A stretch of 54,691 bases of DNA from an uncultured Candidatus Saccharibacteria bacterium (GCA_964481345.1 CAYZTC010000007.1:1-54691), one strand, 5' to 3'; shown: positions 8,832 to 48,917, counted from the stretch's first letter. The notes: generated by a model not told the origin, from the sequence alone. Numbers and translations are program-made.

Positions 8832-9887
8832 ATGAAAAAGATGCTTCAAGAAGTAACTAAAAAACTTTTTGGAAAAAAGTGGATTCTGGTAGGCCTTGGT
8901 ATTACTTCTGTACTTGCTATTACCGGTGTATTTGTGTGGTTTGTTTATCCAACTTACTTTGGTCCAGCTGGTGGTGATGGTGAGGAGCCGGCTAAAGAGG
9001 AGGAGCTTGACTGTGATACCATACTTCTCAAGGAAGACTGGCAGACTTATACAGAAACTGATGGTTTTGGTTATACAATAAGATATCCGGCTGATTGGCA
9101 GGTCAGCGAGGAATTGTTCAGTGGGCATTCATATTGGAGAGCAGGGTTTGGTCCGGAAGGAAATATTTCTGAAACTGCAGCGGTATTTATAGGTGAGGCA
9201 AACTACCACACACTTGAAAATTACAGACATCTTTTATCGGATGGTACCTCACCTCCATATATACTTGGAGAAAGTGAAGATGTCATAGTTGATGGGGAAA
9301 ATGCTACTAGATTCTTTTTGGAGCTGGAGGGACTAGAGCAGTATAAGTATGTTTTATACTATGTTCCATATGAACAAATAGGAGTTAATAGGCTTTTTCA
9401 GGGAAATACCGAGGAGTCGATAAGGCGTGATTATTGTGAATCCGATGTTTTTTATACCATGATAGGCTCTTATGAATTTGGTCAAGAGTATGAGAAAGAA
9501 GATTGCGGTTTTAGTTTTCGATACCCCCTGGGCTGGGAGATTGAGAGTGATTATTATTATGAAACAGCTGGCGGAAGTGTAGCTACACTACCTACAATAC
9601 ACTTACGAGAAGTTGATGATGAAGAAACAAATGAATGGATAACAATTTATCCAAGACAGTCAGATTGTTATTATGTAGAATCTCCTGAAATCGAGGAAGA
9701 GTATATCAACGGATCTACAGTTACCTCTTATTACAATGAAACTCAAGGTGCTCGTTGTATTGAAGCAGATGTGTCAGTAAAAGATAAGAACGGTAAAAGC
9801 ACATCATTTGAGTGGATTTCCATGTCCTCAAGTGAAGAAACCCAAGAGATATTTAAGCAAATCGTTTATACCTTTGAAGTGTACTAG
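8832..9887 (+). CDS. Membrane-anchored hypothetical protein with two related modules
   Basis: The ORF is open from 8805, but ATG 8832 (MKKMLQEV...) directly precedes the TM helix WILVGLGITSVLAITGVFVWFVY. Two internal modules start with GFGYTIRYPADWQV and CGFSFRYPLGWEI. Confidence 0.5.
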   Translation: MKKMLQEVTKKLFGKKWILVGLGITSVLAITGVFVWFVYPTYFGPAGGDGEEPAKEEELDCDTILLKEDWQTYTETDGFGYTIRYPADWQVSEELFSGHSYWRAGFGPEGNISETAAVFIGEANYHTLENYRHLLSDGTSPPYILGESEDVIVDGENATRFFLELEGLEQYKYVLYYVPYEQIGVNRLFQGNTEESIRRDYCESDVFYTMIGSYEFGQEYEKEDCGFSFRYPLGWEIESDYYYETAGGSVATLPTIHLREVDDEETNEWITIYPRQSDCYYVESPEIEEEYINGSTVTSYYNETQGARCIEADVSVKDKNGKSTSFEWISMSSSEETQEIFKQIVYTFEVY

Positions 9888-10113
9888 TGTTTGGACGATT
9901 TTCATCCCTTCTGAACAGTTGTGTCTTGAAGTAAAACGATAAGTTTAATTGTTTGCACAAGGACCATTGGGATAACAAAAATGGCAGACGAGAGCCTACA
10001 TTTGGGAGCCGGACAAAAAACATTACTACTTAAAGTCCAAGCTAAAGTTTACATCCCACCTCTAGTCTTTCAGCAATCATCTACCGCTATACTTTTAACT
10101 TATTTATTTCTTC

Positions 10114-12762: not shown

Positions 12763-14481
12763 ATGAAGTGGAGTAAGTATTTTCTAAAGACGGAACGGAA
12801 TGCCCCAAAATCTGCAACACTAGATTCTCACAAACTTCTTCATCGAGGAGGTTTCATTAGACAGATATCTACTGGAAGATATGCATTTTTGCCTATTGGA
12901 ATGAGAGTTAAAAGGAAGATAATTGATATTATCGCAGATGAACTATCAAAGATAGGTGCACAAAGAGTAGAACTTCCAATTATGCAGCCTATTGAGATTT
13001 GGGAAGTAACAAGTAGGGATAAAGTATGGGGAGATCAGATGATAGTTACGGAGGACCATTATGGAAGAAAATTTGCACTTAGTGCAACGGCTGAGTCACT
13101 CATGGCAGAAATCATAAAAGGGTTTAAGCCAAGCTATAAGGACCTTCCAATTAACATATATCAATTTTTACCAAAGTTTAGAGATGAGCTAAGACCTCGT
13201 GGAGGACTCATAAGGGCAAGAGAGTTTCTGATGATGGATGCATACAATTTTGAGGCTTCAGAGAAAGATTTCATGAAGACGTATGAGGATTACAAAAAGG
13301 CTTACACAAACATTTTTGCTAGATTAGGGCTGGATTCCATTGTGGTGGAAGCGGATAGTGGACCACTTGGTGGTGATTACTGTCATGAATTTATGGTAGA
13401 GGCTGAAGGTGGTGGAGATAGTTATGTTACCTGTGATAAATGTGATTACAAAGCAAACTTGGAAATGGCTGAGTTTGTTCCTGATTCTGTAAACATGGAC
13501 CAAGAGGAGAAAAAGATGGAGGTTGTAGACCAGCCTGAATGGGTTGATACCATGGAAAACAATAAAAAACATTATGGCAAGCCATTATCAAACTATCTAA
13601 AAAATGTTGTTTATATTGATGATAAAGATAGAATAATAATAGCTGTACTTCGTGGTGATTTAGAAGCAGACCCAGTAAAAATCTCAAGACTTCTAGGTGG
13701 TGTAGTCTTAAGATATGCTGAGGATAAAGATATTGAGAAGTTTGGGTCGAAGAGCGGATGGGTTCATTCCTGGGGTCATGATAAAGGAAGAAAGGATGTT
13801 GTTTATGTCGTTGATTCGTCTTTAAAGAACTCAAGAAATATGATTGGGGGGCAGAAGGAAAAGGAAAAGGATACTATCAATGTAAATTATGGGAGAGATT
13901 TTAAGCACAAGATTGAGGGTGACATTAGCATAGCATCTGATGGGTCAAGATGTGCTCGATGTAAAGAAGGTTATTTAAGAATAAAGAAATGTATAGAAGT
14001 TGGACATATTTTTAAGTACAATCATTATTATACTGAACCACACAAGTCCTACTTCATCGACAAAGATGGTAAAGAAAAACCTATGTGGATGGGTGCATAT
14101 GGGATAGGAATTGGTAGAGCTATGGCTACTATTGCTGAAGTACATCATGATAAAGATGGTATTATTTGGCCTAAATCGATAGCACCATTTTTAGTACATA
14201 TAGTTCCAGTAGATGAGACCAAGGATGTTATGAAAGTGGCAAGTGAGATATATGAGGAAATGAATAAAAAATATAAGGGAGAAGTGTTGTACGATGATAG
14301 AGAGGGGCTTTCAGCTGGTGTGAAATTTGCTGATGCGGATCTTTTGGGTATTCCTGTTAGAATTGTGGTAAGTAAAAAGAGTATTAAAGATGGAAAAATT
14401 GAAATCAAGATGAGAAATAGTAAAAAGTACGAGTTAATTGAGATTAAGGATAAAGAAAAGCTTTGGCGGTTACTTAAATAA
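12763..14481 (+). CDS. proS: Proline--tRNA ligase
   Basis: 572 aa. The bacterial-type ProRS N-terminus reads SHKLLHRGGFIRQISTGRYAFLPIGMRVKRKI. Class II core and C-terminal anticodon-binding domain are present. A TATAAT box lies at 12728-12733. Confidence 0.9.
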   Translation: MKWSKYFLKTERNAPKSATLDSHKLLHRGGFIRQISTGRYAFLPIGMRVKRKIIDIIADELSKIGAQRVELPIMQPIEIWEVTSRDKVWGDQMIVTEDHYGRKFALSATAESLMAEIIKGFKPSYKDLPINIYQFLPKFRDELRPRGGLIRAREFLMMDAYNFEASEKDFMKTYEDYKKAYTNIFARLGLDSIVVEADSGPLGGDYCHEFMVEAEGGGDSYVTCDKCDYKANLEMAEFVPDSVNMDQEEKKMEVVDQPEWVDTMENNKKHYGKPLSNYLKNVVYIDDKDRIIIAVLRGDLEADPVKISRLLGGVVLRYAEDKDIEKFGSKSGWVHSWGHDKGRKDVVYVVDSSLKNSRNMIGGQKEKEKDTINVNYGRDFKHKIEGDISIASDGSRCARCKEGYLRIKKCIEVGHIFKYNHYYTEPHKSYFIDKDGKEKPMWMGAYGIGIGRAMATIAEVHHDKDGIIWPKSIAPFLVHIVPVDETKDVMKVASEIYEEMNKKYKGEVLYDDREGLSAGVKFADADLLGIPVRIVVSKKSIKDGKIEIKMRNSKKYELIEIKDKEKLWRLLK

Positions 14482-14514
14482 TCGTCAGTTAGCTAATTTT
14501 TTCAAAATACAAAA

Positions 14515-15516
14515 ATGGAAAACAAAAAAAGAATTTTAACAGGTGATAGGCCAACTGGAAAGCTTCATCTTGGGCACTATGTAGGAACACTTCAAAACAG
14601 AGTAAAACTTCAAGATGAGTATGATGTGTTTTTGATCATTGCAGACTATCATTCAATTACTACTCAGCATGATCCTGAACATATCAAGAAACAAGGAGAG
14701 AATGTAAGACAACTTGTACTCGATTATATATCTTCAGGTATTGATCCCCAGAAAGTGACAATATATCTTCAGTCTTTGATTCCAGAAGTTGCTGAAATAT
14801 CACTATTATTTGGAATGATGGTGACGGTACCCAGGCTCGAGAGGGTTCCCACATTGAAAGATAAAATTAAAGAAACTAAATCTGGTATTCCATATTTTGG
14901 ACTGCTTGGATATCCAGTACTTCAGGCTGCAGATATCTTAGGTGCAAAAGGTGATTTAGTGCCTGTTGGAAAGGACCAAAAGTCTCATGTGGAGCTGTCA
15001 CGTGAAATTGCAGAGAAATTTAATAAATTATATGGTCAGGTTTTTCCTGTTCCAAAGGCATTAATTGGTGACATTGTACCTGGAATCGATGGAAAAGAAA
15101 AGATGGGTAAATCATTAGGAAATGCTATTTTTCTTGCGGATTCAAAAGATGAGGTTGAAAAAAAAGTGATGTCGATGTATACAGATCCGAAAAGAATTCA
15201 CTCTGATGATCCTGGTACCATAGAGGGAAATCCCGTGTTTGTATATCATGATGCATTTAATTCAAATAAAGCTGAGGTAAAAGATTTAGTGGAAAGATAT
15301 AAAAAGGGTAAGGTGGGAGATGTTGAGGTAAAAGAAAAACTTACTAAAGCATTGAATGACTTTCTTGACCCATTTAGGAAAAGAAGAGCAGGTTGGGAGG
15401 GAGACATGAAAAAGGTTGATGAGCTGATATTGAAAGGTACTGAAAAAGCAAGAAAGGTATTTAAACAGTCACTCTCTGAGATGAAAGAGGCGATGGGTTA
15501 CAATTATGTGAAGTAA
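14515..15516 (+). CDS. trpS: Tryptophan--tRNA ligase
   Basis: 333 aa. Class I HIGH-type motif TGDRPTGKLHLGHYVG and KMSKS-type motif KMGKSLGN. The size is typical of TrpRS. Confidence 0.85.
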   Translation: MENKKRILTGDRPTGKLHLGHYVGTLQNRVKLQDEYDVFLIIADYHSITTQHDPEHIKKQGENVRQLVLDYISSGIDPQKVTIYLQSLIPEVAEISLLFGMMVTVPRLERVPTLKDKIKETKSGIPYFGLLGYPVLQAADILGAKGDLVPVGKDQKSHVELSREIAEKFNKLYGQVFPVPKALIGDIVPGIDGKEKMGKSLGNAIFLADSKDEVEKKVMSMYTDPKRIHSDDPGTIEGNPVFVYHDAFNSNKAEVKDLVERYKKGKVGDVEVKEKLTKALNDFLDPFRKRRAGWEGDMKKVDELILKGTEKARKVFKQSLSEMKEAMGYNYVK

Positions 15517-15603
15517 ACTATTTACTTCGTTTCAATTTCGATTGTACCAACAACGATGTCTACGAGTGAAATGTCATCTTTAACCGACTCTTTATGTCAA
15601 GGT

Positions 15604-16242
15604 TTACAGCTCTTCTAGTTTTCCAGTATCAACATCTATCTTTGTTGTTCCTTCTGTTGATGCCATATCATTCTCCATATCGTACTCGATATATTCACTC
15701 GTTAGGTAGCTATCATCGTCGGCCCATTCTGGAGCAGTATATATTCTCATCAGATCTAGACTACTTACTGACTCGGTCATGTTTGTATCGTCATCATCTT
15801 TGAGGTCGTAGATATAGACATTATGGGGTGAAACCTCTGTAGTGTGATTTGTATATGAGATCATAGAACTATCGTTTGACCATACACAATTTTCGGCTAC
15901 CCCGACCTCTGTTACATCTGATCCGTCGATATGGGACCAGTACATCCATATAGGCGCAACAGTATGTCCCAGGAAACACATTTTGTCATCATCTGAGGAT
16001 TGAGATACCGCACTGAACCTTATAATATCTTCGTAGTCATCCTTATCTACTAATGTTATCTCTTTTCCGCTCGAGTATTGTTTTACTACGTTTCCATCTG
16101 ATATTGTAATTTCAGGATTAAAAAGAAAGTCCGATATTGTTTTTCTTGTCACTTGGAGATATGCAAAGGGTATCCCGATGACAACTACTAGTCCAAGTAG
16201 CCATGGTGCAAGTTTGCTAAGAAAAAAGGGTAACTTCTTCAT
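15604..16242 (-). CDS. Membrane-anchored hypothetical protein
   Basis: 212 aa. N-terminal TM (LAPWLLGLVVVIGIPFAYL) and an acidic beta-rich ectodomain. No family recognised. Confidence 0.45.
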   Translation of the reverse strand: MKKLPFFLSKLAPWLLGLVVVIGIPFAYLQVTRKTISDFLFNPEITISDGNVVKQYSSGKEITLVDKDDYEDIIRFSAVSQSSDDDKMCFLGHTVAPIWMYWSHIDGSDVTEVGVAENCVWSNDSSMISYTNHTTEVSPHNVYIYDLKDDDDTNMTESVSSLDLMRIYTAPEWADDDSYLTSEYIEYDMENDMASTEGTTKIDVDTGKLEEL

Positions 16243-20700: not shown

Positions 20701-21021
20701 ATGAAGGAACTGGAGAAATCTGATAAACGGAGGATGGTAAAAATATCAATAATTTTAGGGACAACAATACTTCTTATTGTTGGAATTGGGTTTTATATTA
20801 TTGTCAAAAAAGATCCATCCTGCTGTGGCTCTTCAGACAGCTCTGATAGCTCATTTATTCCAATATTTTCTGGTGTGTGGGTACCGATATTTCTTGCAGC
20901 TGCAAATAAGGATAGAGATAAACTTGATGAAAAACCAAGAAAAATACTTACAGTCATTACAGGTATTCTTGCAGTGCTACTGCTTGGTGGGATTGTTACT
21001 TTGATGATTTATGTGATCTAA
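20701..21021 (+). CDS. Small membrane protein (3 predicted TM) with CCGSSDSSDSS loop
   Basis: 106 aa. Hydrophobic segments ISIILGTTILLIVGIGFYIIV, IPIFSGVWVPIFLAAA and VITGILAVLLLGGIVTLMIYV. Confidence 0.45.
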   Translation: MKELEKSDKRRMVKISIILGTTILLIVGIGFYIIVKKDPSCCGSSDSSDSSFIPIFSGVWVPIFLAAANKDRDKLDEKPRKILTVITGILAVLLLGGIVTLMIYVI

Positions 21022-21719
21022 TATATCACTGCACCAGCAACATATTCCTTATTGTTAGGATTTTCATTTAGGGCTCCAGTGTAGTCATATATTCTAGTGT
21101 CAAATAATCCGAGTCTTAGCCCACTACCTCCATCCATTCTTTGTGGATCTATGATTTGTACAGGGTTTTCAGCAAGAAATACTAGTTCTTGCTGATATAT
21201 TGCAGGATCAAAGGTTTTCCATCCCTCTTCAAGTAAAGGTTCAAAGTAACAAATCCTTCTTCCATTTTGTGTTGTATGGAATTTAATGGGTCTTGATGAA
21301 ATTGGAATGTTGGGATCTGCTTCAGATATGTTTATCTGCTTGAAAATCTCTATATGTGGTGAGATGTTGTGTTCATTGGCTCCCGATATTAGAAAAATTC
21401 CTTTTTGACTGTATCTTACGTCACTCGTCTTAAATGGTTGTATAGTTCTAACTCGGCTTAGAATGTAAGAAAGAGAAATGGGTGTTTGAACATCAGTATT
21501 GTTTCTTACATAAATAAAACACTCATCTCTTCCTGGCCTGTACAGTTCTGTTTCTTCCCTGTTAATTGATATGATTCCCCATGGCTTTCGTGTAAATAGC
21601 TCATAATTGTTTCTTAATTGAAGAAGATCTGTCACAAGCTTCTCATGTTTTTCTTTTTCTGGTACGTCCCCACCTGTGGGATCTTGTCGACTAAATAGAG
21701 ATGATGATTCAGGATTCAT
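21018..21719 (-). CDS. Hypothetical protein, no recognisable family
   Basis: 233 aa uninterrupted ORF, soluble. Divergent from the Nudix-like gene. Its 3-prime end overlaps the preceding convergent ORF by 4 nt. Confidence 0.45.
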   Translation of the reverse strand: MNPESSSLFSRQDPTGGDVPEKEKHEKLVTDLLQLRNNYELFTRKPWGIISINREETELYRPGRDECFIYVRNNTDVQTPISLSYILSRVRTIQPFKTSDVRYSQKGIFLISGANEHNISPHIEIFKQINISEADPNIPISSRPIKFHTTQNGRRICYFEPLLEEGWKTFDPAIYQQELVFLAENPVQIIDPQRMDGGSGLRLGLFDTRIYDYTGALNENPNNKEYVAGAVIY

Positions 21720-21840
21720 TTTCTTAAAGAAAAAAATTACTTGGGAGTATTATATCATCCCATCCTATAGTGTAATTTTAAAGGGATTCTATGGCAAAAG
21801 ATATTTACTAGGCAGGTCTTATTATGGTTTAATTCAACTG

Positions 21841-22638
21841 ATGGATAGTAAAGAGAAGATAAAACCTAGTTTTCCTTCAGATGTGCAAATTCTTCTCTCT
21901 GAAGGGCAGTATAATAATGCGATTATTGAACATGCTTCAGTATCTTCTTTTCCAAGTCAGTATATCAAGGACAGGAATGAATTTTGGGACGATAAGGTAA
22001 AAGAAGGAAAGAAATCTGGGAAAAAGTTTTGGAATGGAACGTTATATACTCTTGGAAATATAGATCTTTCAAATTCTCAGGCTCCAGTGATTACTCTTGG
22101 GAAATGTGAATACAGAGATTTTGCTTTTAAACATACACTTGGACCTGATACTATTATTGAAAAATATGGAAAAGAGTCTTTAATAAAACACTGTTGGGTT
22201 AGCATTCTTCCTGTTACCTCTGATGGAAAATTAGTATGTGGAATGAAAGATAAAACTGTGAGAATAGAGCCAGATGTGATGGCGTATATAAGTGGAGAGT
22301 TGAATGCCGATGAAACTGAGGTTAAAAGTCTAAATGATATTAGGGATCATGCTCATAAAGAGTTACTTGAAGAGTCTAATATCAATGTAACAAAAGAGTC
22401 TGTAAAACTGCTGCAGATTATTGTTACAAGAACTCATGCTGAATTTCAGTTTATGGTCCCCCTAAAAATTTCCTCGAAAGAAATAGATAAGGTTAATAAG
22501 CCAGGGGAATTTAAGAAATTTGTTGCTATGAGTACTCAAGAATTAAAAGAATTTCAAGGAGAAAGATTAGAGGTATTTAAAAGATTTCAGTACCAAATAA
22601 AAAATTTTGTGCAACCTATATCAAAATTTTTATCATAA
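21841..22638 (+). CDS. Nudix-like protein with a degenerate Nudix box
   Basis: The track ORF starts at 21676 and would overlap the divergent gene. ATG 21841 (MDSKEKIKP) is the likelier start. The box-like segment is GELNADE-x14-KELLEESNI. The canonical box is G-x5-E-x7-REUxEExGU, so here the spacing is expanded, R is replaced by K and G by N. Confidence 0.35.
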   Translation: MDSKEKIKPSFPSDVQILLSEGQYNNAIIEHASVSSFPSQYIKDRNEFWDDKVKEGKKSGKKFWNGTLYTLGNIDLSNSQAPVITLGKCEYRDFAFKHTLGPDTIIEKYGKESLIKHCWVSILPVTSDGKLVCGMKDKTVRIEPDVMAYISGELNADETEVKSLNDIRDHAHKELLEESNINVTKESVKLLQIIVTRTHAEFQFMVPLKISSKEIDKVNKPGEFKKFVAMSTQELKEFQGERLEVFKRFQYQIKNFVQPISKFLS

Positions 22639-22869: not shown

Positions 22870-24462
22870 ATGATCAAAATAGCAGAACTCACACTTAAAG
22901 AATACACTTTTAACCCTGGTAAGGTGAATCTGATATTAGGTGCTAACAACACGGGTAAAAGTACCCTTTTAAGAGAAATATCAGGCTCAATCAATAATCC
23001 AAAAGATATTCATAAGAATCTTTGGGTCAAACAAATGAAAGTAGAGTTTGAAAAAGTTGGATCTGAGTTCGCAGAAAAGTTTCCTGAAGTGCAAGAAGCA
23101 CTAAAATTTGATGAGGTAGATAATCTGAATGATAGGGGTCTTCAAACTATTTACGGTGTTAACATTTGGAATCATAACGTATTCAATCAATTAAAAAAAG
23201 ATTCCGGTGATGCCTTCACTCATGTGATTGATCAAACAGTATTTGATAGTGAAGAAGGACATTATGCGGTTTTTCTATCCCAATTTAAGACAGCAACTGA
23301 ATTTTGTGGATCACGTTTAGGTGGACCATTTAGTACACAGATAGAAAAGATAACTAATCCGATAAGCAACATTATCCATTATCTTTACATCCAAACCAAT
23401 ATATTTGAAGGGATACAAGAACATATAAAAAATATTTTTGACATAAAAGTAGGATTTGATAATTTACGACAAGGTGATATTGCATTAAGAATTATGCCTG
23501 ACACCAATCCTCCCCCAAATGGTACAGTTGAGGAACAGTCTAAATACTGGGAAGAAAACTCTCCATTTGTAAATGATCAGGGTGATGGAATAAAAGCATA
23601 TTTAAAAATAATATTCACATTATTTAATCCAGTAAAAGATATTATACTTATTGACGAACCCGAGTCATTCCTGCATCCACCACAAAGACGTAATCTAGGG
23701 AGCTTTATAAGTCAGAATGTTGAAAGAGGCAAACAGATCTTTATAGCAACTCATGATGGTGAATTCCTAAATGGAATGCTTCCTTCCTTAGACACAAAAG
23801 ATATAAAGATACTTCACCTCAAAGACGAAGATAAGGATAAAAAGTGTAATGTTGTAAGTTTTAGCACAGGAGAAAGAAAGTCGGAACAGTATAACGAAGT
23901 TATATTAAATTCATTCTTTAATAAATCTACGATTCTAACTGAAGCTGAAGATGATCGGATGATTTATCAATATGCCTCAAAAGAATACTTTAATTCTTCA
24001 TCTCAGGATATAAACTTTATTGGATTCAGTGGCATAACTGAAGTTCTTAAAGCATTTAAGGTGTTGAATGATTGGTCATTAAGCACAAAATGTATTTTGG
24101 ATATTGACTATCTGAGTTCTCAAAAACTAAGAAGTAAAATCCCATTGAACGAAAAGGATAAGCATATTATGAAGAAGATTAAAAGCAAATTAGATGACTT
24201 ATTATCCAATGATGATTATATATCTGATTTCAAAAAGCTTGGAATTAGAAGCCAAACTGTAATTTCAATAAGAGAAGATTTGGAGAATGCAATTGATATG
24301 CTGAAAACTTATGCTGTTTTCATAATACCTTATGGTTCACTAGAGTCATTTTTCAAGATTGAAAAGAAAGATCGTAGAATAGTGCAAAAAGCACTTGATT
24401 CAATTGAAGAAAAAAAATTGAGAAATCTTTATTCTTTTATCAAGTCAGTATTGGAATCATAA
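22870..24462 (+). CDS. ABC/SMC-type AAA ATPase fused to a Toprim/DUF4435-like C-terminal domain (OLD-family / PARIS-like architecture)
   Basis: 530 aa. Walker A GANNTGKST, signature-like DQGDGIKAY, Walker B ILIDEPESFLHP, H-loop FIATHDGEF. The C-terminal region carries an acidic E motif (TILTEAEDDRMIY) and a DxD motif (CILDIDYL), as in OLD-type Toprim domains. Confidence 0.55.
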   Translation: MIKIAELTLKEYTFNPGKVNLILGANNTGKSTLLREISGSINNPKDIHKNLWVKQMKVEFEKVGSEFAEKFPEVQEALKFDEVDNLNDRGLQTIYGVNIWNHNVFNQLKKDSGDAFTHVIDQTVFDSEEGHYAVFLSQFKTATEFCGSRLGGPFSTQIEKITNPISNIIHYLYIQTNIFEGIQEHIKNIFDIKVGFDNLRQGDIALRIMPDTNPPPNGTVEEQSKYWEENSPFVNDQGDGIKAYLKIIFTLFNPVKDIILIDEPESFLHPPQRRNLGSFISQNVERGKQIFIATHDGEFLNGMLPSLDTKDIKILHLKDEDKDKKCNVVSFSTGERKSEQYNEVILNSFFNKSTILTEAEDDRMIYQYASKEYFNSSSQDINFIGFSGITEVLKAFKVLNDWSLSTKCILDIDYLSSQKLRSKIPLNEKDKHIMKKIKSKLDDLLSNDDYISDFKKLGIRSQTVISIREDLENAIDMLKTYAVFIIPYGSLESFFKIEKKDRRIVQKALDSIEEKKLRNLYSFIKSVLES

Positions 24463-26194: not shown

Positions 26195-26270
26195 TGGGGT
26201 GGAAGATGGGATTCGAACCCACAACCTCCTGTACCACAAACAGGCGCTCCACCATTGAGCTACATCCACC
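26195..26270 (-). tRNA. tRNA-His (anticodon GTG), encoded G-1 and CCA
   Basis: Reverse complement: G-GTGGATG-TA-GCTC-AATGGTG-GAGC-G-CCTGT-TTGTGGT-ACAGG-AGGTT-GTGGG-TTCGAAT-CCCAT-CTTCCAC-C-CCA. The extra 5-prime G opposite C73 is the His identity feature. Confidence 0.9.
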
Positions 26271-43224: not shown

Positions 43225-43253
43225 TTGACAGTTATTTTGTCTACTGTTACAAT
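43225..43253 (+). promoter_or_regulatory. Near-consensus sigma70 promoter
   Basis: TTGACA (43225-43230), a 17-nt spacer, then TACAAT (43248-43253). It lies 27 nt upstream of ATG 43281. Confidence 0.55.
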
Positions 43254-43254
43254 G

Positions 43255-43281
43255 TAGTAATACATTAACACGGTATTACTA
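43255..43281. promoter_or_regulatory. 9-bp perfect inverted repeat, candidate operator
   Basis: TAGTAATAC (43255-43263) and GTATTACTA (43273-43281) are separated by 9 nt. The repeat lies between the -10 box and the start codon of the TrpR/YerC-like gene. Confidence 0.45.
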
Positions 43282-43640
43282 TGGATAATAGAAAAGATTG
43301 GAAAAATGAAGATACTGACAAGTTATTTGAGTCTATTTTAAGCCTTTACTCCTTGGATGAGTGTGAAAGGTTTTTTAGAGACCTTATGACTGTTCCTGAA
43401 ATAGAAGCCTTTGCGCAAAGGCTTAAAGTTGCGTTGCTTCTATCTAGAGGTATGTCTTACCGTCAGATTTCAAAAGAGACTGGTGCAAGTACTACTACCG
43501 TGACAAGGATAAATGATTGGTTGGAGAGAGGATGTGACGGTTACAAATTAGCAATTTCCAGGTTGAACAGTAAAGAAAATAATTCTTCTGAAGTTACATC
43601 ACTTCATCATCACGACCCGCAAATTATTGCCGGGTTGTGA
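43281..43640 (+). CDS. TrpR-related YerC/YecD-family DNA-binding protein
   Basis: 119 aa. The family pattern reads ECERFFRDLMTVPEIEAFAQRLKVALLLSRGMSYRQISKETGASTTTVTRINDWLERG. Confidence 0.75.
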   Translation: MDNRKDWKNEDTDKLFESILSLYSLDECERFFRDLMTVPEIEAFAQRLKVALLLSRGMSYRQISKETGASTTTVTRINDWLERGCDGYKLAISRLNSKENNSSEVTSLHHHDPQIIAGL

Positions 43641-43710
43641 TTTCTTATTTCCCAAAGTAAAAATTCATAAACTGGTAATACGGTTTGCTTTGTTAATAAA
43701 GCTATAACAT

Positions 43711-43783
43711 GGTGGATGTAGCTCAATGGTGGAGCGCCTGTTTGTGGTACAGGAGGTTGTGGGTTCAAATCCCATCTTCCACC
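43711..43783 (+). tRNA. tRNA-His (anticodon GTG), second copy, inverted relative to 26195-26270
   Basis: Same sequence as the minus-strand copy, except the T-loop is TTCAAAT instead of TTCGAAT. The 3-prime tail after C73 reads CAT, so there is no full encoded CCA. G-1 is encoded. Confidence 0.9.
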
Positions 43784-43814
43784 CATGAAGTGGATTTAAT
43801 AATAATAATTGATT

Positions 43815-44051
43815 ATGGAAAAGATAGAAAAACAAATAATAATACCTACAACTTCAGAAAGAGAGTCAATAGTAAATTCTTGCTGTAATTCAGGTTGTGT
43901 AGATACCCTACCAGGAAAGGAAGTTACAGTGACTTCATATCTAAGTACACTCCTAGGTAATCCAGGGCAAGGACAAATGAGAGGGATGACCGTGATAATT
44001 ACATATGCAGATCAAGCAGATAAGTTGTCAAACTATTGTCTTCACCTCTGA
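43815..44051 (+). CDS. Small Cys-bearing ORF of uncertain status (78 aa)
   Basis: MEKIEKQIIIPTTSERESIVNSCCNSGCVDTLPGKEV... There is no SD. It begins about 30 nt after tRNA-His and overlaps the next ORF by 47 nt. It could be a real peptide, a frameshifted N-terminus of the 644-aa protein, or non-coding. Confidence 0.25.
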   Translation: MEKIEKQIIIPTTSERESIVNSCCNSGCVDTLPGKEVTVTSYLSTLLGNPGQGQMRGMTVIITYADQADKLSNYCLHL

Positions 44052-45939
44052 GGACCAATATTCTATAGATTGGAGGGTATTCAATGAGGCGTATAGTGTA
44101 ACGTCAAACAGTCTATATGAGAATAGGATTTCATTCTCTAATGACACAGTATCTACCTCTCTTTTCCTTATCAACCAACTATCGGAAGATTTAGGTTCGC
44201 GATCTGTCTTGGCATTAAAAGAAAATTTGAGAGAGTGTGAGCAGGAAGTGGGCGAGAGAGATCTGTTAAATAGCATTAGCAATCTGATATGTCAGAAATA
44301 TCCCAATTCAGGCTCATTTGACCGTGCAATGTTAATTAGTGCATTTGCTGCTGCAACATGTCTTTTAGAACAGACAGATCTATTTGATAAAAGATTAACT
44401 AATTTTTCTACAAACAATACTATGGAAATAGTGACAGAAAGAAACAAAAAGATACAGCTTGTATCTCCTCTAGCTAAGGATATCTATATAGATCCATCTC
44501 TTTCAGAAATAACATCTAATGTTTCAAGAATAAAAGCAGGAGTGGAGAGAGAGATTCAAGGGCTTAAATCTCAGAAAAGGGGAGGAAGGAAAACAGCGTG
44601 GAGTTTAATTGAGGATAAGTATGTAGAGAATGTAACTGAACAAGAGGCTTTCAAACAGGCATTAACTATAAATCCCCAATGGGAAGAACTAGATGAATAT
44701 AGAAGAAGAGGAGTACTGATCAAGACAAGATTTCGGCTTGCTTCACAAAGAGCTGAGGAAGATATGTTCAACAAGAAATACTCTGAAGCAGTAAAAGAAT
44801 ACCAATCATTTGTTCTTCGAAAGGATCTTGAGTTTATTGAGTGGGAACTAAGAACATCGTTAACAGAGCTTTCAAACGAAAGTTTAACTTTCTTGATAAG
44901 AAATTTCATCGAAATTCGGAATAAATGGCTTAAATCAGGTGGACAAAAGTCTCCGGATGATGAACTGAGATGGAGAATACTGCAACCACTTCTAAAGAAA
45001 GTACGGTTTAACAAGGAAGAGGATGAGATTCCATTAGAGAACAACAGTGAAAATCTGAAAAGAGCCATCAGTATAATAAAAAGGTATACTCGGACCCAAA
45101 ATTCAGAGTACACACTGATCAATGAGAAAGCCCTCAAAGAGTATATATATAGGTGTCTGTCAGAAAATAAACCTATTGTATTTTCAGCAGCTCTTTGTCC
45201 AACCAGATGGCCCAAAAGACTCCTTTACAGGACTCCTAAAGAAAGAGCACAGTTCTACGATCCTAATCCTTGGAAGGCAGATGCTGTTGACCTTCTTCCA
45301 ATCACTCAAGATTTAGCCTTCCAACTACAATCTCAAGGTTTTAAGGTAAAGTTCGAGTGGGCGATCTTTGTTTCTGACGAAGAAGATTATATAAGATTTA
45401 CATCTCTAAACCCATGGCTACAAGACAGAGAGACAAAGAACTTACTTAGAGAGAATGTTGAACTGTTTAAAGAAAACATATCAGCACTTCTTATGGCTTC
45501 ACTTGGAGATAGTTTTGGAGGGTGTAAGATTAATATTTTAGGATCAGGCCAAACTAAAGATGAAATCGAAAAGATTGATAACTTATGTCAGAGTATTAAA
45601 GAGGAAGCTAAAAGTAATAAAAGTTTGAGAAATCTGATTTGTGAGATTGCAGAAAGGAGAAAATCTTCCTTTGAAGATCCCAATGGATTTTACAATTCAG
45701 CATACAGTGAGGTTGGGGGAGGACTTACAAGCAGAGATTATGGAAACATCGCTCTGAGATATATTGCCACATATAGGAGACAATTTTTGAAATATCTTAA
45801 TGGGATTAGGGTGGATAATAGTTATGCAACAATGGCAAGAGCATTCCTGCTGAAAAAAGATGGAGCAAACTTCCCAGTAGTAAATCCATTTCCGAGACCA
45901 GATCAAAGAAATAGAATAAGGTTTGACCAAATCAAATGA
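44005..45939 (+). CDS. Large orphan protein (644 aa), no family recognised
   Basis: Long uninterrupted ORF. Helical N-terminal region, a charged and probably coiled central region, and an alpha/beta-looking C-terminal third (KPIVFSAALCPTRWPKRL, FEWAIFVSDEEDYIRF). Its stop overlaps the start of the GT4 gene. Confidence 0.5.
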   Translation: MQIKQISCQTIVFTSEDQYSIDWRVFNEAYSVTSNSLYENRISFSNDTVSTSLFLINQLSEDLGSRSVLALKENLRECEQEVGERDLLNSISNLICQKYPNSGSFDRAMLISAFAAATCLLEQTDLFDKRLTNFSTNNTMEIVTERNKKIQLVSPLAKDIYIDPSLSEITSNVSRIKAGVEREIQGLKSQKRGGRKTAWSLIEDKYVENVTEQEAFKQALTINPQWEELDEYRRRGVLIKTRFRLASQRAEEDMFNKKYSEAVKEYQSFVLRKDLEFIEWELRTSLTELSNESLTFLIRNFIEIRNKWLKSGGQKSPDDELRWRILQPLLKKVRFNKEEDEIPLENNSENLKRAISIIKRYTRTQNSEYTLINEKALKEYIYRCLSENKPIVFSAALCPTRWPKRLLYRTPKERAQFYDPNPWKADAVDLLPITQDLAFQLQSQGFKVKFEWAIFVSDEEDYIRFTSLNPWLQDRETKNLLRENVELFKENISALLMASLGDSFGGCKINILGSGQTKDEIEKIDNLCQSIKEEAKSNKSLRNLICEIAERRKSSFEDPNGFYNSAYSEVGGGLTSRDYGNIALRYIATYRRQFLKYLNGIRVDNSYATMARAFLLKKDGANFPVVNPFPRPDQRNRIRFDQIK

Positions 45940-47060
45940 TGAAAACTGTAATAATTCTACCTTATCCATATCCAATAGATAACAAGCTCCGTACTGGGTT
46001 AATAGGGGGATTACAAACACAGGCAAAGTATATGATTGATTATTTGAGAAATAGAATTGATATTGAAGTGTTATCTCTTGGTAACAATTATACATATCCT
46101 AACAAGCAGATTCGTTACTTTGGAAATTACATGTGCGATAGAGAAAAAGGTATTAGGGAGATCTTGAGAGAGGTAAAGAAGAGTCCACCTGACAACTTGT
46201 TTCTATTCTTGACCAGAAGTGCTGCGATAGGAGAACAATTTAAGTTGCTTAATTCTTTACCAAAATTTACTGATGTTACTGTTCAAATAACGAGAACCGA
46301 CTATATAGACACATTTTCCGAGGAAGAAATCCTTATCCTTAAAGGATGCAGAATAATTGCCCAAAGCGATGTACAAGAAAAACTCCTTTTAAAAAGAGGT
46401 ATTGTTCCACAAGATATTATTGTTGTGGGCAATCCGGTTGATCTGTCTGAGTTTACTCCAAGTTCTCAAGAGGATAAAGTTAAATTACGTAAGACATATG
46501 GAATTAATGCAGATGATAAAGTAATACTTTCTACAAGTCGTTTAATAAGAGATAAAGGTATTCAAGTATTATTTGATGCTTTGGAAATATTATCTGAAGA
46601 TCTTATAATTACATGCTTGGTAGTCGGGGTCGATGATAAGGATGGTGAGGGTAGCCAGTTTGTTAAGAGGGCAGAGGCTCTTAGTACGCAAGGCAATTTG
46701 ACTGTGAAGGTGCTTGGAAAAAAAGATATTGTTGAAATGCCTAGGTTCTATCAAATTAGTGACGTATTTACACTTACTTCAAGAACAGAAGGTCTCTCGA
46801 ACTCACTAATGGAAGCAATGGCTTCAAAAACACCTATAATAGCAACAGATATAGATGCAAACAAAGTATTACTTAAAGATAACTACTCTGGATTGCTATA
46901 CCGATATTCCGATGTTACAAATCTAGCAAACGGAATCAGGAAACTCTTAATCAAGAAGAGCCTCGGAGAGATGCTGGTAGAAAATGCATTTGAAACAATA
47001 CAAAATTATAGCTCAGAGAAGATACTTCCTAAATATCTCTATATCATTAATGATATTTGA
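45936..47060 (+). CDS. Glycosyltransferase family 4
   Basis: 374 aa. The C-terminal motif is TEGLSNSLMEAMASKTPIIATDIDANKVLL. ATGA overlap with the preceding gene. Confidence 0.75.
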   Translation: MMKTVIILPYPYPIDNKLRTGLIGGLQTQAKYMIDYLRNRIDIEVLSLGNNYTYPNKQIRYFGNYMCDREKGIREILREVKKSPPDNLFLFLTRSAAIGEQFKLLNSLPKFTDVTVQITRTDYIDTFSEEEILILKGCRIIAQSDVQEKLLLKRGIVPQDIIVVGNPVDLSEFTPSSQEDKVKLRKTYGINADDKVILSTSRLIRDKGIQVLFDALEILSEDLIITCLVVGVDDKDGEGSQFVKRAEALSTQGNLTVKVLGKKDIVEMPRFYQISDVFTLTSRTEGLSNSLMEAMASKTPIIATDIDANKVLLKDNYSGLLYRYSDVTNLANGIRKLLIKKSLGEMLVENAFETIQNYSSEKILPKYLYIINDI

Positions 47061-47078
47061 TATACTGAATAAGTAATT

Positions 47079-47579
47079 ATGGAATTATCGAATAATCAAA
47101 ACCAAAGTGAAAAAAGTCTTTCGGATATTCTAAGAGAATATGGAGAAAAAGGGTTCATTTTTCATGGACGACCTGAAGGTGATCTAAAGATTATTGTTCC
47201 TGCATCCCCAAAGTACTCTGAGAGGGATGATGAATTTAGTCGTGATAGGGCTGTATATGCAAGTGACAATCCAGCATCCTCTATTATGTTTTCATTGATA
47301 AATCGAAAAGATTCTAGATTTGCGGAAGGTACATGGAATGCTTCTTGGTCAGAAAAAGGTGATGGGTTTAGAGCAAAGGTTCCTGTCTCATGGAAGAGTG
47401 CATTAGAAAAGAATTCTGGGTTTGTGTATGTTTGTTCTAAAGATGGCTTTATAACCCATGGTGAAGGAACAAGGAATAAGGAGTATAAAAGTCATAAAAA
47501 TGTGATTCCCATCGATATGGTTAGTGTTACCTTAAGGGATTTTTATAATTTGGGGGGAAAAGTAGAATGGACAAAGTAA
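47079..47579 (+). CDS. Orphan 166-aa protein (possible minimal H-Y-E ADP-ribosyltransferase-like fold, speculative)
   Basis: Candidate triad residues sit in FIFHGRP, RAVYASDNP and NKEYKSHKNVIPIDMV. Their spacing is similar to diphtheria-toxin/PARP-type ARTs. This is a pattern-level observation only. Confidence 0.3.
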   Translation: MELSNNQNQSEKSLSDILREYGEKGFIFHGRPEGDLKIIVPASPKYSERDDEFSRDRAVYASDNPASSIMFSLINRKDSRFAEGTWNASWSEKGDGFRAKVPVSWKSALEKNSGFVYVCSKDGFITHGEGTRNKEYKSHKNVIPIDMVSVTLRDFYNLGGKVEWTK

Positions 47580-47591
47580 ATAATACAATTG

Positions 47592-47600
47592 TGATATACT
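47592..47600 (+). promoter_or_regulatory. Extended -10 element TGaTATACT 6 nt before the hisS ATG (possible leaderless transcript)
   Basis: TGATATACT at 47592-47600, then AAAAAC, then ATG 47607. The geometry is the same as at 22855-22872. Confidence 0.3.
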
Positions 47601-47606
47601 AAAAAC

Positions 47607-48917
47607 ATGGAAAAACCAAGAAAATTAAGGGGATTTAACGACTTTTTCGGGGAGGATATGCGGATCCGACAGTATGTTATTGATACCTTTAAACAAACAT
47701 TTGAAAAATATGGCTATGAGCCTCTTGAGACTCCAGCGTTGGAGTACTCTAAGTATATGCTTGGACAAAGCGGTGAAGAGGCAGAAAAGCAGTTTTATAG
47801 GTTCAAGGATCCTGGGGGGAGGGATGTGATGTTGAAATATGAGGTAATGATCGGAATGTGCAGGGCTGTTGCAGAAAACTACGATAACATTGAATTCCCG
47901 TATAAAAGGTACCAGATACAAAGGACTTGGAGAGCTGAAAACACGCAAAAGGGTCGCTATAGAGAGTTCACCCAGTGCGACGCGGATACCATAGGTTCAA
48001 ATTCAATGATTAACGATGCTGAATTTATCCAGATGGGGCTTGAAGTTGTTGGCAAGCTTGGGTTTAAAGAATATATTGCAAACATTAGTAACAGGAAATT
48101 TCTTGCTGGACTTGCTGAATATGCAGGTATTTCAGGTGAAAAGCTATACGGTTTTGCTATGTCTTTAGATAAGATTAGGAAAATTGGCAAGGATAAAGTA
48201 ATAAAGGAAATGGTTGATAAGAGGAACATTGAAAAAGATAAAGTTGTTAAAGCACTGGACTTGATAGATCAAGCCGAAGGAAAGAATTATGATGAATTGA
48301 TTTCTGAGTATGAAAAGAATGTTGGTACAACGAAGATTGGCAAGGAGGGCCTAGATGAGTTAGCTGAAATTCGAAAATACCTGATAGCCAGTGGTGTAGA
48401 TGAGAAGCTTTATAAATTTGATCCAACTATTGCAAGAGGACTTGCATCATATACCGGACCGGTGTGGGAGTATGAAGTGAAAGATGGAGATGTAGGATCA
48501 ATTGGGGGCTGTGGGAGATATGACAATGTAATCTCGAAATATATTGGTAAAGATGTACCTGCTACTGGTGGATCGTTTGGGATTGAAAGAATTTGTGATA
48601 TTTTGAAGGAAAGGAAAATGGTTAGTTTCAGTGAACTTACTGCAAACGTTATGGTTACAGTTTTTAATGAGGATACTATTCAGGAATCGTTAAAAATTGC
48701 AAATGGACTTAGAAATGCTGGTATATATGTGATGCTTTATCCTGATCCAGACAAACTTGGTAAACAATTTAAGTATGCTGATAGTAAAGGAATAGAGTGG
48801 GTTGTTGTGGTTGGGCCTGAGGAAATTAAGAAAGACGTTGTTCAGCTAAAGAATATGAAGACTGAAAAACAAGAGGAAATGAAAGTTGATGAAGTAGTGA
48901 AAAAACTTACCGTGTAA
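47607..48917 (+). CDS. hisS: Histidine--tRNA ligase
   Basis: 436 aa. Class II HisRS pattern: KLRGFNDFFGEDMRIRQYVIDTFKQTFEKYGYEPLETPALEY, RYREFTQCDADTIG and GGGRYDN-like GGCGRYDNV. C-terminal anticodon-binding domain. Confidence 0.9.
   Translation: MEKPRKLRGFNDFFGEDMRIRQYVIDTFKQTFEKYGYEPLETPALEYSKYMLGQSGEEAEKQFYRFKDPGGRDVMLKYEVMIGMCRAVAENYDNIEFPYKRYQIQRTWRAENTQKGRYREFTQCDADTIGSNSMINDAEFIQMGLEVVGKLGFKEYIANISNRKFLAGLAEYAGISGEKLYGFAMSLDKIRKIGKDKVIKEMVDKRNIEKDKVVKALDLIDQAEGKNYDELISEYEKNVGTTKIGKEGLDELAEIRKYLIASGVDEKLYKFDPTIARGLASYTGPVWEYEVKDGDVGSIGGCGRYDNVISKYIGKDVPATGGSFGIERICDILKERKMVSFSELTANVMVTVFNEDTIQESLKIANGLRNAGIYVMLYPDPDKLGKQFKYADSKGIEWVVVVGPEEIKKDVVQLKNMKTEKQEEMKVDEVVKKLTV

Follow-up and report, generated by a model that had tools for sequence, protein, structure and literature searches.

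What do the genes between a histidine tRNA gene and the histidyl-tRNA synthetase gene (hisS) do in an uncultured Candidatus Saccharibacteria bacterium? The stretch of DNA that raises this question (GCA_964481345.1 CAYZTC010000007.1:1-54691; all 54,691 nucleotides (nt) of it are called the window here) carries at this place four consecutive same-strand open reading frames (ORFs): a small ORF of 78 amino acids (aa), which we call S, a 644-aa ORF, a GT4 glycosyltransferase, and a 166-aa ORF. A reading made from the sequence alone had described them as an orphan cassette, possibly a glycosylation or modification module acting on a small peptide or another macromolecule, on the side of a tRNA gene where islands integrate. 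The answer that we favor is different: S and the 644-aa protein (X, a name that we use also for its relatives) may together encode an aminoacyl-handling enzyme that is gated by histidine starvation and made, with the GT4, from a histidine-linked operon. We put the probability of this proposal at about 0.5. The features that it involves are as follows; the ORFs, the tRNA, the GT4, its overlap with the preceding gene, and hisS all lie where the sequence-only reading had placed them.

43225-43253, + strand: near-consensus sigma-70-type promoter, TTGACA-17-TACAAT, TG-extended, upstream of hisR
43255-43281: candidate operator, a perfect 9-nt inverted repeat (TAGTAATAC-N9-GTATTACTA) between the -10 element and the hisR ATG
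43281-43640, + strand: hisR, YerC/YecD family, TrpR-like (TIGR02531)
43712-43784, + strand: tRNA-His(GUG), anticodon gtg (tRNA call and Rfam), the second copy in the window and the one inside the putative operon
43815 (ATG) to 44051, + strand: ORF S, 78 aa, zero frame, containing SCCNSGC
44005-45939, + strand: 644-aa ORF (X from its ATG)
44040-44046, + strand: proposed +1 frameshift heptamer CTT_CAC_C, with the Leu codon in the P site and the His codon in the A site
44044-45939, + strand: X as read in the +1 frame (631 codons and the stop)
45112-45936, + strand: C-terminal domain of X, conserved (aa ~370-644 in the numbering of the 644-aa ORF)
45936-47060, + strand: GT4 glycosyltransferase with EX7E motif (Pfam Glycos_transf_1)
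47079-47579, + strand: 166-aa ORF, lineage-specific, without family match
47607-48917, + strand: hisS, encoding histidyl-tRNA synthetase (HisRS; 371 bits for TIGR00442, whose cutoff is 287), with which the same-strand block closes

The X/GT4 core and its predicted fold

Neither the 644-aa protein, the 166-aa protein, nor S has a match in Pfam, NCBIfam, PADLOC, or PHROGs. Word-indexed homology searches with X, including its profile, returned self matches only, and phmmer, run exhaustively over 1.84 billion cluster representatives, recovered just seven relatives, at 21-37% identity. A scan for the motifs CPTRWPK(R) and IF[AV][TS]DE[SET]D(Y), which did not target the CPSRRP branch, found none in GTDB species representatives, JGI metagenome contigs, or IMG/VR. 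The C-termini of the family share the motifs CP[TS]R[WR]PxRL, F[YF][DE]xNP, TQE, [TS]DExDY, GFY, and ATY[RS]xQ. Outside the window, the gene orders around X are:

L005/L006: hisR, small ORF, X, GT4
L007: hisR, X (774-781 aa), GT4
L008: X, GT4
L012: small ORF, X, GT4, hisS
L004/L016: tRNA-His, small ORF, X (33% identical to window X), then the contig end

In the window, the stop TGA of X (45937-45939) overlaps the GT4 ATG (45936-45938). The same 4-nt overlap, which the sequence-only reading had noticed here, is kept wherever a GT4 follows X, that is in five divergent loci (the window, L005/L006, L007, L008, and L012). The sole other locus with visible downstream sequence, the high-G+C L013, has no GT4 after X. 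The module-linked GT4s have diverged to about the extent that X has (20-34% identity), as expected if the two are co-inherited as a pair. Comparison of the loci shows a conserved core, S/X plus a GT4 that is probably translationally coupled to it. The suggestion of an undescribed system holds up, because the 644-aa and 166-aa proteins match no ordinary envelope-polysaccharide family and the X/GT4 linkage is conserved across these five loci; our literature search found no description of the X family or of the gene arrangement, and both appear to be without a described counterpart.

The GT4 itself is a standard member of its family, both by Pfam gathering score (Glycos_transf_1, 102.6 bits against a cutoff of 26.4) and by its EX7E motif, EGLSNSLME, which is kept in L005, L007, and L012, the loci where the C-terminal half is available. 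Its nearest solved structures by sequence are BshA (5d00, 2jjm, 3mbo) and TarM, and MshA also appears; among NCBIfam models it scores 78 bits for BshA and 63.6 bits for MshA, below the equivalog cutoffs of 273.7 and 462.5, and it resembles glycolipid synthases and exopolysaccharide (EPS) enzymes as well. The 166-aa gene, which had been grouped with X and the GT4 as a trio, is by comparison of the loci outside the conserved core and lineage-specific, so that of the trio the X/GT4 pair is what recurs. We see this gene only in the window and in L003, a strain 96% identical at the DNA level, in whose copy (526-1027) one nucleotide is inserted into a T-run; most substitutions of the locus fall in this gene, which is either fast-evolving or decaying. 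A homology search with the 166-aa protein returned one fragment, a PDB sequence search only noise, and its AlphaFold2 model is unusable (per-residue confidence, pLDDT, 37). The gene downstream in L005 was considered as a relative of it and is unrelated by comparison.

Several observations concern the relatives themselves. L013, L014 (1-11855), and L015 represent a lineage of ~56% G+C that carries an X homologue. In L014 this homologue ends a cluster of DegT aminotransferase, radical-SAM/SPASM, aminotransferase, and methyltransferase genes; the high-G+C gene overlaps the preceding gene by 4 nt and appears to be split after CPSRRP, the C-terminal half being found on a different contig of that assembly. 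The L012 homologue has an in-frame TGA at a conserved position (1330-1332, LLK*IEID), which could be a nonsense mutation, a sequencing error, or a readthrough site; the adjacent GT4 and hisS are intact. In L007, an 803-826-aa protein encoded 3' of the GT4 (13440-15920) has no Pfam match, and we rejected it as an X relative: its local likeness to the CPTRW motif (KPIDVTVIRCLRW) is weak, with an hhalign probability below 1%.

What kind of protein is X? Its AlphaFold2 model has a mean pLDDT of 69, with 80-90 in the C-terminal domain (aa ~370-630), long helices in residues 140-370, and low confidence in the first 140 residues. When the model was compared with the PDB by Foldseek, 48 of the 50 best matches were tyrosyl-tRNA synthetases (TyrRS) or cyclodipeptide synthases (CDPS), at probabilities of 0.8-1.0 and, for the top matches, target-normalised TM-scores of 0.38-0.47. 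The best was 6byq (E 7.6e-3, probability 1.0); the CDPS structures 9j61, 3oqj, 2x9q, 3oqv, and 4q24 matched with probabilities of 0.9-0.99 and target-normalised TM-scores of 0.40-0.47, all with E above 1e-3. Against BFVD, the sole match of probability above 0.5 was a mimivirus TyrRS. Sequence comparison gave nothing in the same direction: neither X nor any of its seven relatives has a Pfam match, to the CDPS family or otherwise, when E is allowed to reach 1, nothing in the PDB is found with the X sequence or profile at E up to 10, the X profile aligned to Methanocaldococcus jannaschii TyrRS (in an unverified version of its sequence) has an hhalign probability of 0.2%, and neither a HIGH nor a KMSKS motif is visible in the X alignment. 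With sequence-level support absent, the fold assignment is therefore made with moderate confidence: the predicted C-terminal domain resembles the Rossmann domain of class-Ic aminoacyl-tRNA synthetases (aaRS) and CDPS.

The invariant cysteine of CP[TS]R, Cys398 (codon 45196-45198), stands right after the predicted strand 391-397. If the fold assignment is correct, it would lie in the loop that holds the acyl-accepting Ser37 in CDPS and HIGH in class-I synthetases. The catalytic residues of CDPS are not reproduced in X, which has Cys in place of Ser and, as its sole helix motif, ATY[RS]xQ. CDPS themselves lack HIGH and KMSKS. The S37C variant of the CDPS AlbC is active through a thioester intermediate (PMC3105412), so that the chemistry of the X cysteine could still be analogous.

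The junction between S and X

The 78-aa and 644-aa ORFs share 47 nt, and gene callers begin the large ORF 68 codons further on. Where, then, does X begin? We compared the junction by script in four lineages (the window, L004, L005, and L012). S is conserved in the three others and always ends in [CS]-L-H followed by 0-2 residues; its only invariant residues are two glycines and the terminal Leu-His. At the DNA level the codons CTT CAC are identical at the end of S in all four, followed by 0-2 codons and the stop (44049-44051 in the window), and the X frame is always +1 to that of S and opens 15 (window), 4 (L004), 4 (L005), and 13 (L012) codons upstream of the site. Counting from the site, a canonical start is first reached in the X frame 55 (window), 16 (L004, a TTG), 86 (L005), and 111 (L012) codons later, so that the X frames of L005 and L012 have no ATG, GTG, or TTG for 86 and 111 codons. 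These start-less stretches are nevertheless homologous as protein (window against L005, 29% over 79 aa, E 2e-5; L004 against L012, E 6e-4; L005 against L012, E 4e-3) and are therefore translated. In L007, an S-like segment and X are in a single frame and align with the other loci across the junction. L016, a strain variant of L004, has a 24-nt insertion in S that preserves the frame, as expected of a translated ORF, and the persistence of both ORFs and the junction in four lineages whose identity is as low as ~30% argues that this is not a decaying pseudogene.

All four lineages have a +1 ORF with a short overlap and a slippery CUU_C on which the P-site tRNA could re-pair at UUC. CUU is also the slip codon of Ty1 (CUU_AGG_C, ~40% shifting alone) and of prfB (CUU_UGA_C) (PMC5009743). 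S and X look like one FRAMESHIFTED gene, and the junction argues for a programmed +1 frameshift at CUU_CAC, which in the window would join 76 codons (43815-44042) to 631 codons (44044-45936) and yield an S-X protein of 707 aa. The sequence-only reading had raised the possibility of a small peptide as substrate; S is probably not a separate peptide of this kind and looks like the N-terminal part of X.

The slip site lies within the 5' arm of a small predicted hairpin in the window (44038-44055, arms GUCUUCA/UGAGGAC), in L005 (2518-2538, CUGUCUUC/GGAGACAG), and in L012 (312-328, CUUCA/UGAAG); the 3' arm varies by locus with complementarity retained. A downstream stimulatory RNA structure was also considered and found unconvincing, as the slip site is itself part of the small hairpins and few of these have a significant z-score.

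Histidine-linked neighbours

The first gene of the block encodes a TrpR/YerC-type regulator, which the sequence-only reading had recognised together with its strong promoter. It scores 98.1 bits against TIGR02531 (YerC/YecD; cutoff 42.2), which places it in that family, and it matches PDB entries 3G1C, 3FRW, and 3KOR at E 1e-18 to 1e-21 and TrpR at 5e-3; 3G1C is the Eubacterium eligens HisR (E 2e-18). On these matches we identify it as the histidine repressor, HisR. In Bacillus subtilis, YerC is HisR, a TrpR-family repressor of histidine genes with L-histidine as corepressor; DNA binding only in the presence of L-histidine has been demonstrated for Ruminococcus gnavus HisR, and the consensus operator is cacTTTAnnnnnnTAAAgtg (PMC9413887). 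In L007, exactly two CTTTA-N6-TAAAG boxes are found in 22 kb, where 0.02 are expected, and they stand in tandem across the hisR promoter. The inverted repeat of the window does not fit the Firmicutes HisR consensus and is a candidate operator.

The histidine genes around the cassette are more than bystanders and recur as partners of the module in other lineages. hisR is directly upstream in the window, L005, and L007; tRNA-His immediately precedes S in the window and in L004/L016; and hisS is downstream in the window/L003 and in L012, where it directly follows the X-linked GT4. From this distribution, no X locus of the Candidate Phyla Radiation (CPR) type is without a histidine-linked gene. 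Identity between the two HisRS linked to the module is only 29%, and the link therefore outlasts very deep divergence. Within the window, the promoter at 43225-43253 is the sole 11-of-12 match between 43000 and 49200, and no terminator-like site was found on the + strand from this promoter through the end of hisS, so that a single transcript from promoter to hisS is plausible. The whole of 43225-48917 may accordingly be one histidine-linked operon of hisR, tRNA-His, S/X, GT4, the 166-aa gene, and hisS. An Rfam scan found only tRNA, with no T-box and no riboswitch.

Other features of these histidine genes are recorded here in their own right. A second tRNA-His(gtg) lies at 26195-26269 on the - strand, 17.5 kb from the operon copy and in opposite orientation; the two differ at one tRNA position (A or G in the T-loop) and have unrelated flanks, a tRNA duplication that is unusual in a small Patescibacteria genome. 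All three His residues of window HisR are encoded by codons 43605-43613 in its C-terminal tail, and the His residues of each X-linked HisR all fall within the last 20 aa: LHHHD in the window (43605-43613; binomial P 2e-3), SHLHK in L005 (2156-2164; 3e-2), and SHHHHATH in L007 (~9879-9899; 4e-6). In predicted hairpins (z-scores -4.3, -7.3, and -4.1), these tail His codons pair with the stop-codon region, and the 3' end of hisR looks like a built-in histidine sensor of the leader-peptide type. Terminator-like hairpins with U-runs stand immediately 5' of the S/X start in L005 (2181-2245), L012 (6-25), and L007 (9951-9980); the GCCGG arm of the L005 hairpin can also pair within a longer alternative one, which gives an antiterminator/terminator arrangement. 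In the window and L004, tRNA-His occupies the position of these hairpins. The best GTDB relative of window hisS (61% identity) belongs to a Candidatus Shapirobacteria metagenome-assembled genome, which places the window in a genome of Patescibacteria, and the convergent 3' ends of hisS and mutS overlap by 11 nt (48907-48917). Elsewhere in the window, a 530-aa protein with AAA_21/AAA_15 (AbiEii-like ATPase) domains (22870-24462) and two flanking ORFs without Pfam match (21018-21719, - strand; 21676-22638, + strand) may form a defence-type locus.

A proposed mechanism and its alternatives

How might these parts work together? Ribosomes translating S would reach CUU (Leu) in the P site with CAC (His) in the A site, and while CAC waits to be decoded the peptidyl-tRNA-Leu would slip by +1 from CUU to UUC, carrying translation into X and giving the 707-aa protein; unshifted ribosomes would stop one codon past the His codon and release the 78-aa product. 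Since decoding of the His codon is the slow step, shifting should rise as His-tRNA-His falls. Low histidine would also derepress HisR, which acts in the same direction, and the cell would then make X and the GT4 in response to histidine starvation, together with additional tRNA-His and HisRS, GT4 expression following that of X by translational coupling. As for the reaction, X would take an aminoacyl group as a thioester on Cys398, most simply a histidyl group from His-tRNA-His, and hand it to an acceptor that the coupled GT4 makes or decorates, the product being an aminoacylated glycoconjugate. In its strongest form, the proposal is a natural 'hungry-codon' switch, in which the CUU_CAC shift measures charged tRNA-His and gates an enzyme of the aaRS/CDPS fold with a Cys nucleophile together with its GT4, with HisR and the His-codon runs of hisR adding further layers of control; we offer this full version tentatively, as a possibility that has the odds somewhat against it. 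A 2016 review of recoding knew of no starvation-induced frameshifting that yields a functional trans-frame protein (PMC5009743).

Several points weigh against the proposal. One is physiological: an enzyme that consumes His-tRNA-His would be induced by histidine starvation, and it is because a histidine-consuming reaction under histidine shortage is hard to explain that we hold our overall confidence at about 0.5. The AlphaFold2 model of X was built on an alignment of eight sequences; no Foldseek match of X in the PDB has E below 1e-3, X shows no sequence or profile similarity to TyrRS, CDPS, MshC, or BshC in Pfam, NCBIfam, or the PDB, and the match of Cys398 to Ser37 was taken from the predicted strand order, not from a superposition. 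At the junction, the window has an ATG at 44005, 13 codons before the site, that could start the 644-aa X alone, and a conserved Ile codon (ATH), a possible non-canonical start, occurs 8-16 codons past the site in 4/4 loci. CTT-CAC is found in frame in three other genes of the window; it is thus not avoided, and on its own the heptamer is probably not a very efficient shift site. The CAC could also be fixed by the slip requirement (for its C) together with a Thr codon (ACN) in the +1 frame and not by the identity of histidine. On the regulatory side, a HisR box of the Firmicutes type (TTTA-N6-TAAA) was not found in the window, and the high-G+C homologue in L014 is without a histidine-linked neighbour.

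Other explanations account for parts of the same evidence. X could be an ATP-dependent amino-acid ligase like MshC or BshC, with the GT4 in the role of MshA or BshA, the product a low-molecular-weight aminoacyl (His or Cys) glycoside, tRNA no substrate at all, and the histidine genes concerned with regulation or supply only. A GT4 paired with a ligase resembling a class-I aaRS is indeed the logic of MshA/MshC and BshA/BshC; the best fold matches of X are true synthetases (TyrRS), its GT4 is nearest BshA when sequences of solved structures are compared and has BshA and MshA among its top NCBIfam matches, and the L014 homologue sits in an aminosugar-type cluster (DegT, radical-SAM/SPASM, aminotransferase). 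Yet no HIGH or KMSKS motif is visible in X, class-Ic/CDPS-type structures outrank any class-Ia enzyme among the matches, X has no NCBIfam match to BshC or MshC, the GT4 reaches only generic scores (78 bits where BshA requires 274), and none of the loci has a deacetylase gene, all of which makes this explanation unlikely in our view. We are a little more doubtful still of an ordinary module for an envelope glycan or glycolipid, in which S, X, and the GT4 are separate proteins, X has its own (sometimes AUH) start, and the adjacency of hisR, tRNA-His, and hisS is inherited synteny. The resemblance of the GT4 to TarM, glycolipid synthases, and EPS enzymes would suit such a module, as would FtsW and MurG nearby in the window and the small number of independent loci, about six. 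Separate initiation of X could use the ATG at 44005 or the conserved Ile codon, which in some loci has a Shine-Dalgarno-like GAGGA or AAGGAG upstream, but at 11-15 nt from the Ile codon, a poor spacing for initiation. X matches no envelope-enzyme family, and synteny or chance would have to explain the CTT CAC junction and +1 relation in 4/4 loci, the fused frame of L007, its consensus HisR boxes, and the persistence of the histidine link although the adjacent HisRS are only 29% identical.

It is improbable, we think, that X and the GT4 act on tRNA-His itself, for example by aminoacylating or glycosylating the wobble base, or that X senses uncharged tRNA. Enzymes of both kinds have precedents in GluQRS, which acts on queuosine of tRNA-Asp, and in a GT4-family mannosyl-queuosine transferase; tRNA-His(GUG) is embedded in two divergent loci, and the aaRS-like predicted fold would fit tRNA handling. 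But no queuosine genes and no tRNA-binding domain were detected, and L005 and L007 have no tRNA gene. Least credible of all is the picture of a mobile island at tRNA-His, or of a cassette resembling those for ribosomally synthesized and post-translationally modified peptides (RiPPs), with a glycosylated Cys-rich 78-aa peptide. In its favor, as in the sequence-only reading, are the location just past a tRNA 3' end, the motif SCCNSGC, and the orphan proteins. A search of the window for a direct repeat of the tRNA-His 3' end matched nothing besides the two tRNA-His genes themselves, there is no integrase ORF, and X relatives were found neither in phage and plasmid collections (tblastn) nor in IMG/VR (motif scan). 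The G+C content of the cassette (0.34-0.38) is that of its flanks, which are housekeeping genes (those for FtsW, MurG, and ClpC upstream, and MutS and PPDK downstream), and hisR, although upstream of the tRNA, is a member of the conserved module. Without an attachment-site repeat or an integrase, and with flank-like G+C, a tRNA-targeted island was rejected; the RiPP or Cys-motif reading was dropped because SCCNSGC is not conserved, being absent from every homologue.

The starvation-gated enzyme that we prefer has partial counterparts among known systems. X resembles the CDPS AlbC, YvmC, and Rv2275 in a predicted domain that may be a Rossmann domain of the class-Ic-aaRS type, in the lack of HIGH and KMSKS, in a conserved nucleophile-type residue in the loop past what would be the first Rossmann strand, and in a genomic tie to aminoacyl-tRNA supply (tRNA-His and HisRS). 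Unlike them, it has no sequence or Pfam match to the family, a Cys for Ser37, no recognisable Y178/E182/Y202 set, a length of ~700 aa with a helical N-terminal region of ~400 aa, and a coupled GT4 in place of cyclodipeptide tailoring genes. The MshA/MshC (mycothiol) and BshA/BshC (bacillithiol) pathways share the combination of a retaining GT4 with an amino-acid-adding enzyme, of class-I aaRS fold there and of a fold predicted to be similar here, and BshA is the nearest GT4 of solved structure; they differ in that X has neither homology to MshC or BshC nor their ATP motifs, that no deacetylase gene is present, that the module is linked to His and not to Cys, and that its genes are translationally coupled and probably regulated by histidine. 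With the HisR (YerC) regulons of Firmicutes the module has in common the regulator family, its position as first gene of the unit, and the consensus boxes of L007. Those regulons hold his biosynthesis and histidine transporters, whereas the putative targets here are tRNA-His, HisRS, and X/GT4, in hosts that probably lack histidine synthesis, and the inverted repeat of the window differs.

As regards control, the predicted site resembles the +1 sites of Ty1 and prfB in its CUU P-site codon, good re-pairing at UUC, narrow overlap, and conservation. It departs from them in having a His sense codon in the A site within a histidine-linked operon, a zero-frame stop 0-2 codons past the His codon and not in the A site, and no upstream Shine-Dalgarno stimulator. 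In his leader-peptide attenuation and T-box control of hisS, as proposed here, sensing of His-tRNA-His charging by a ribosome or an RNA turns on histidine genes; the read-out in our case would be a change of frame inside a structural gene, and the His-codon runs are at the 3' end of hisR, with no dedicated leader.

If the frameshift is real, S/X would represent a new way of reading out amino-acid supply, in which translation of a structural gene shifts frame at one His codon, and the open question of whether starvation-induced frameshifting can be productive would become testable. If HisR acts as proposed, its regulon would extend past biosynthesis and transport. Independently of the frameshift, X is a very rare, unannotated family with a catalytic domain that is predicted to group with the aaRS and CDPS, and its pairing with a GT4 points to an unfamiliar chemistry of aminoacyl glycoconjugates, both in Patescibacteria, a group unable to synthesize amino acids for itself, and in one or more high-G+C lineages.

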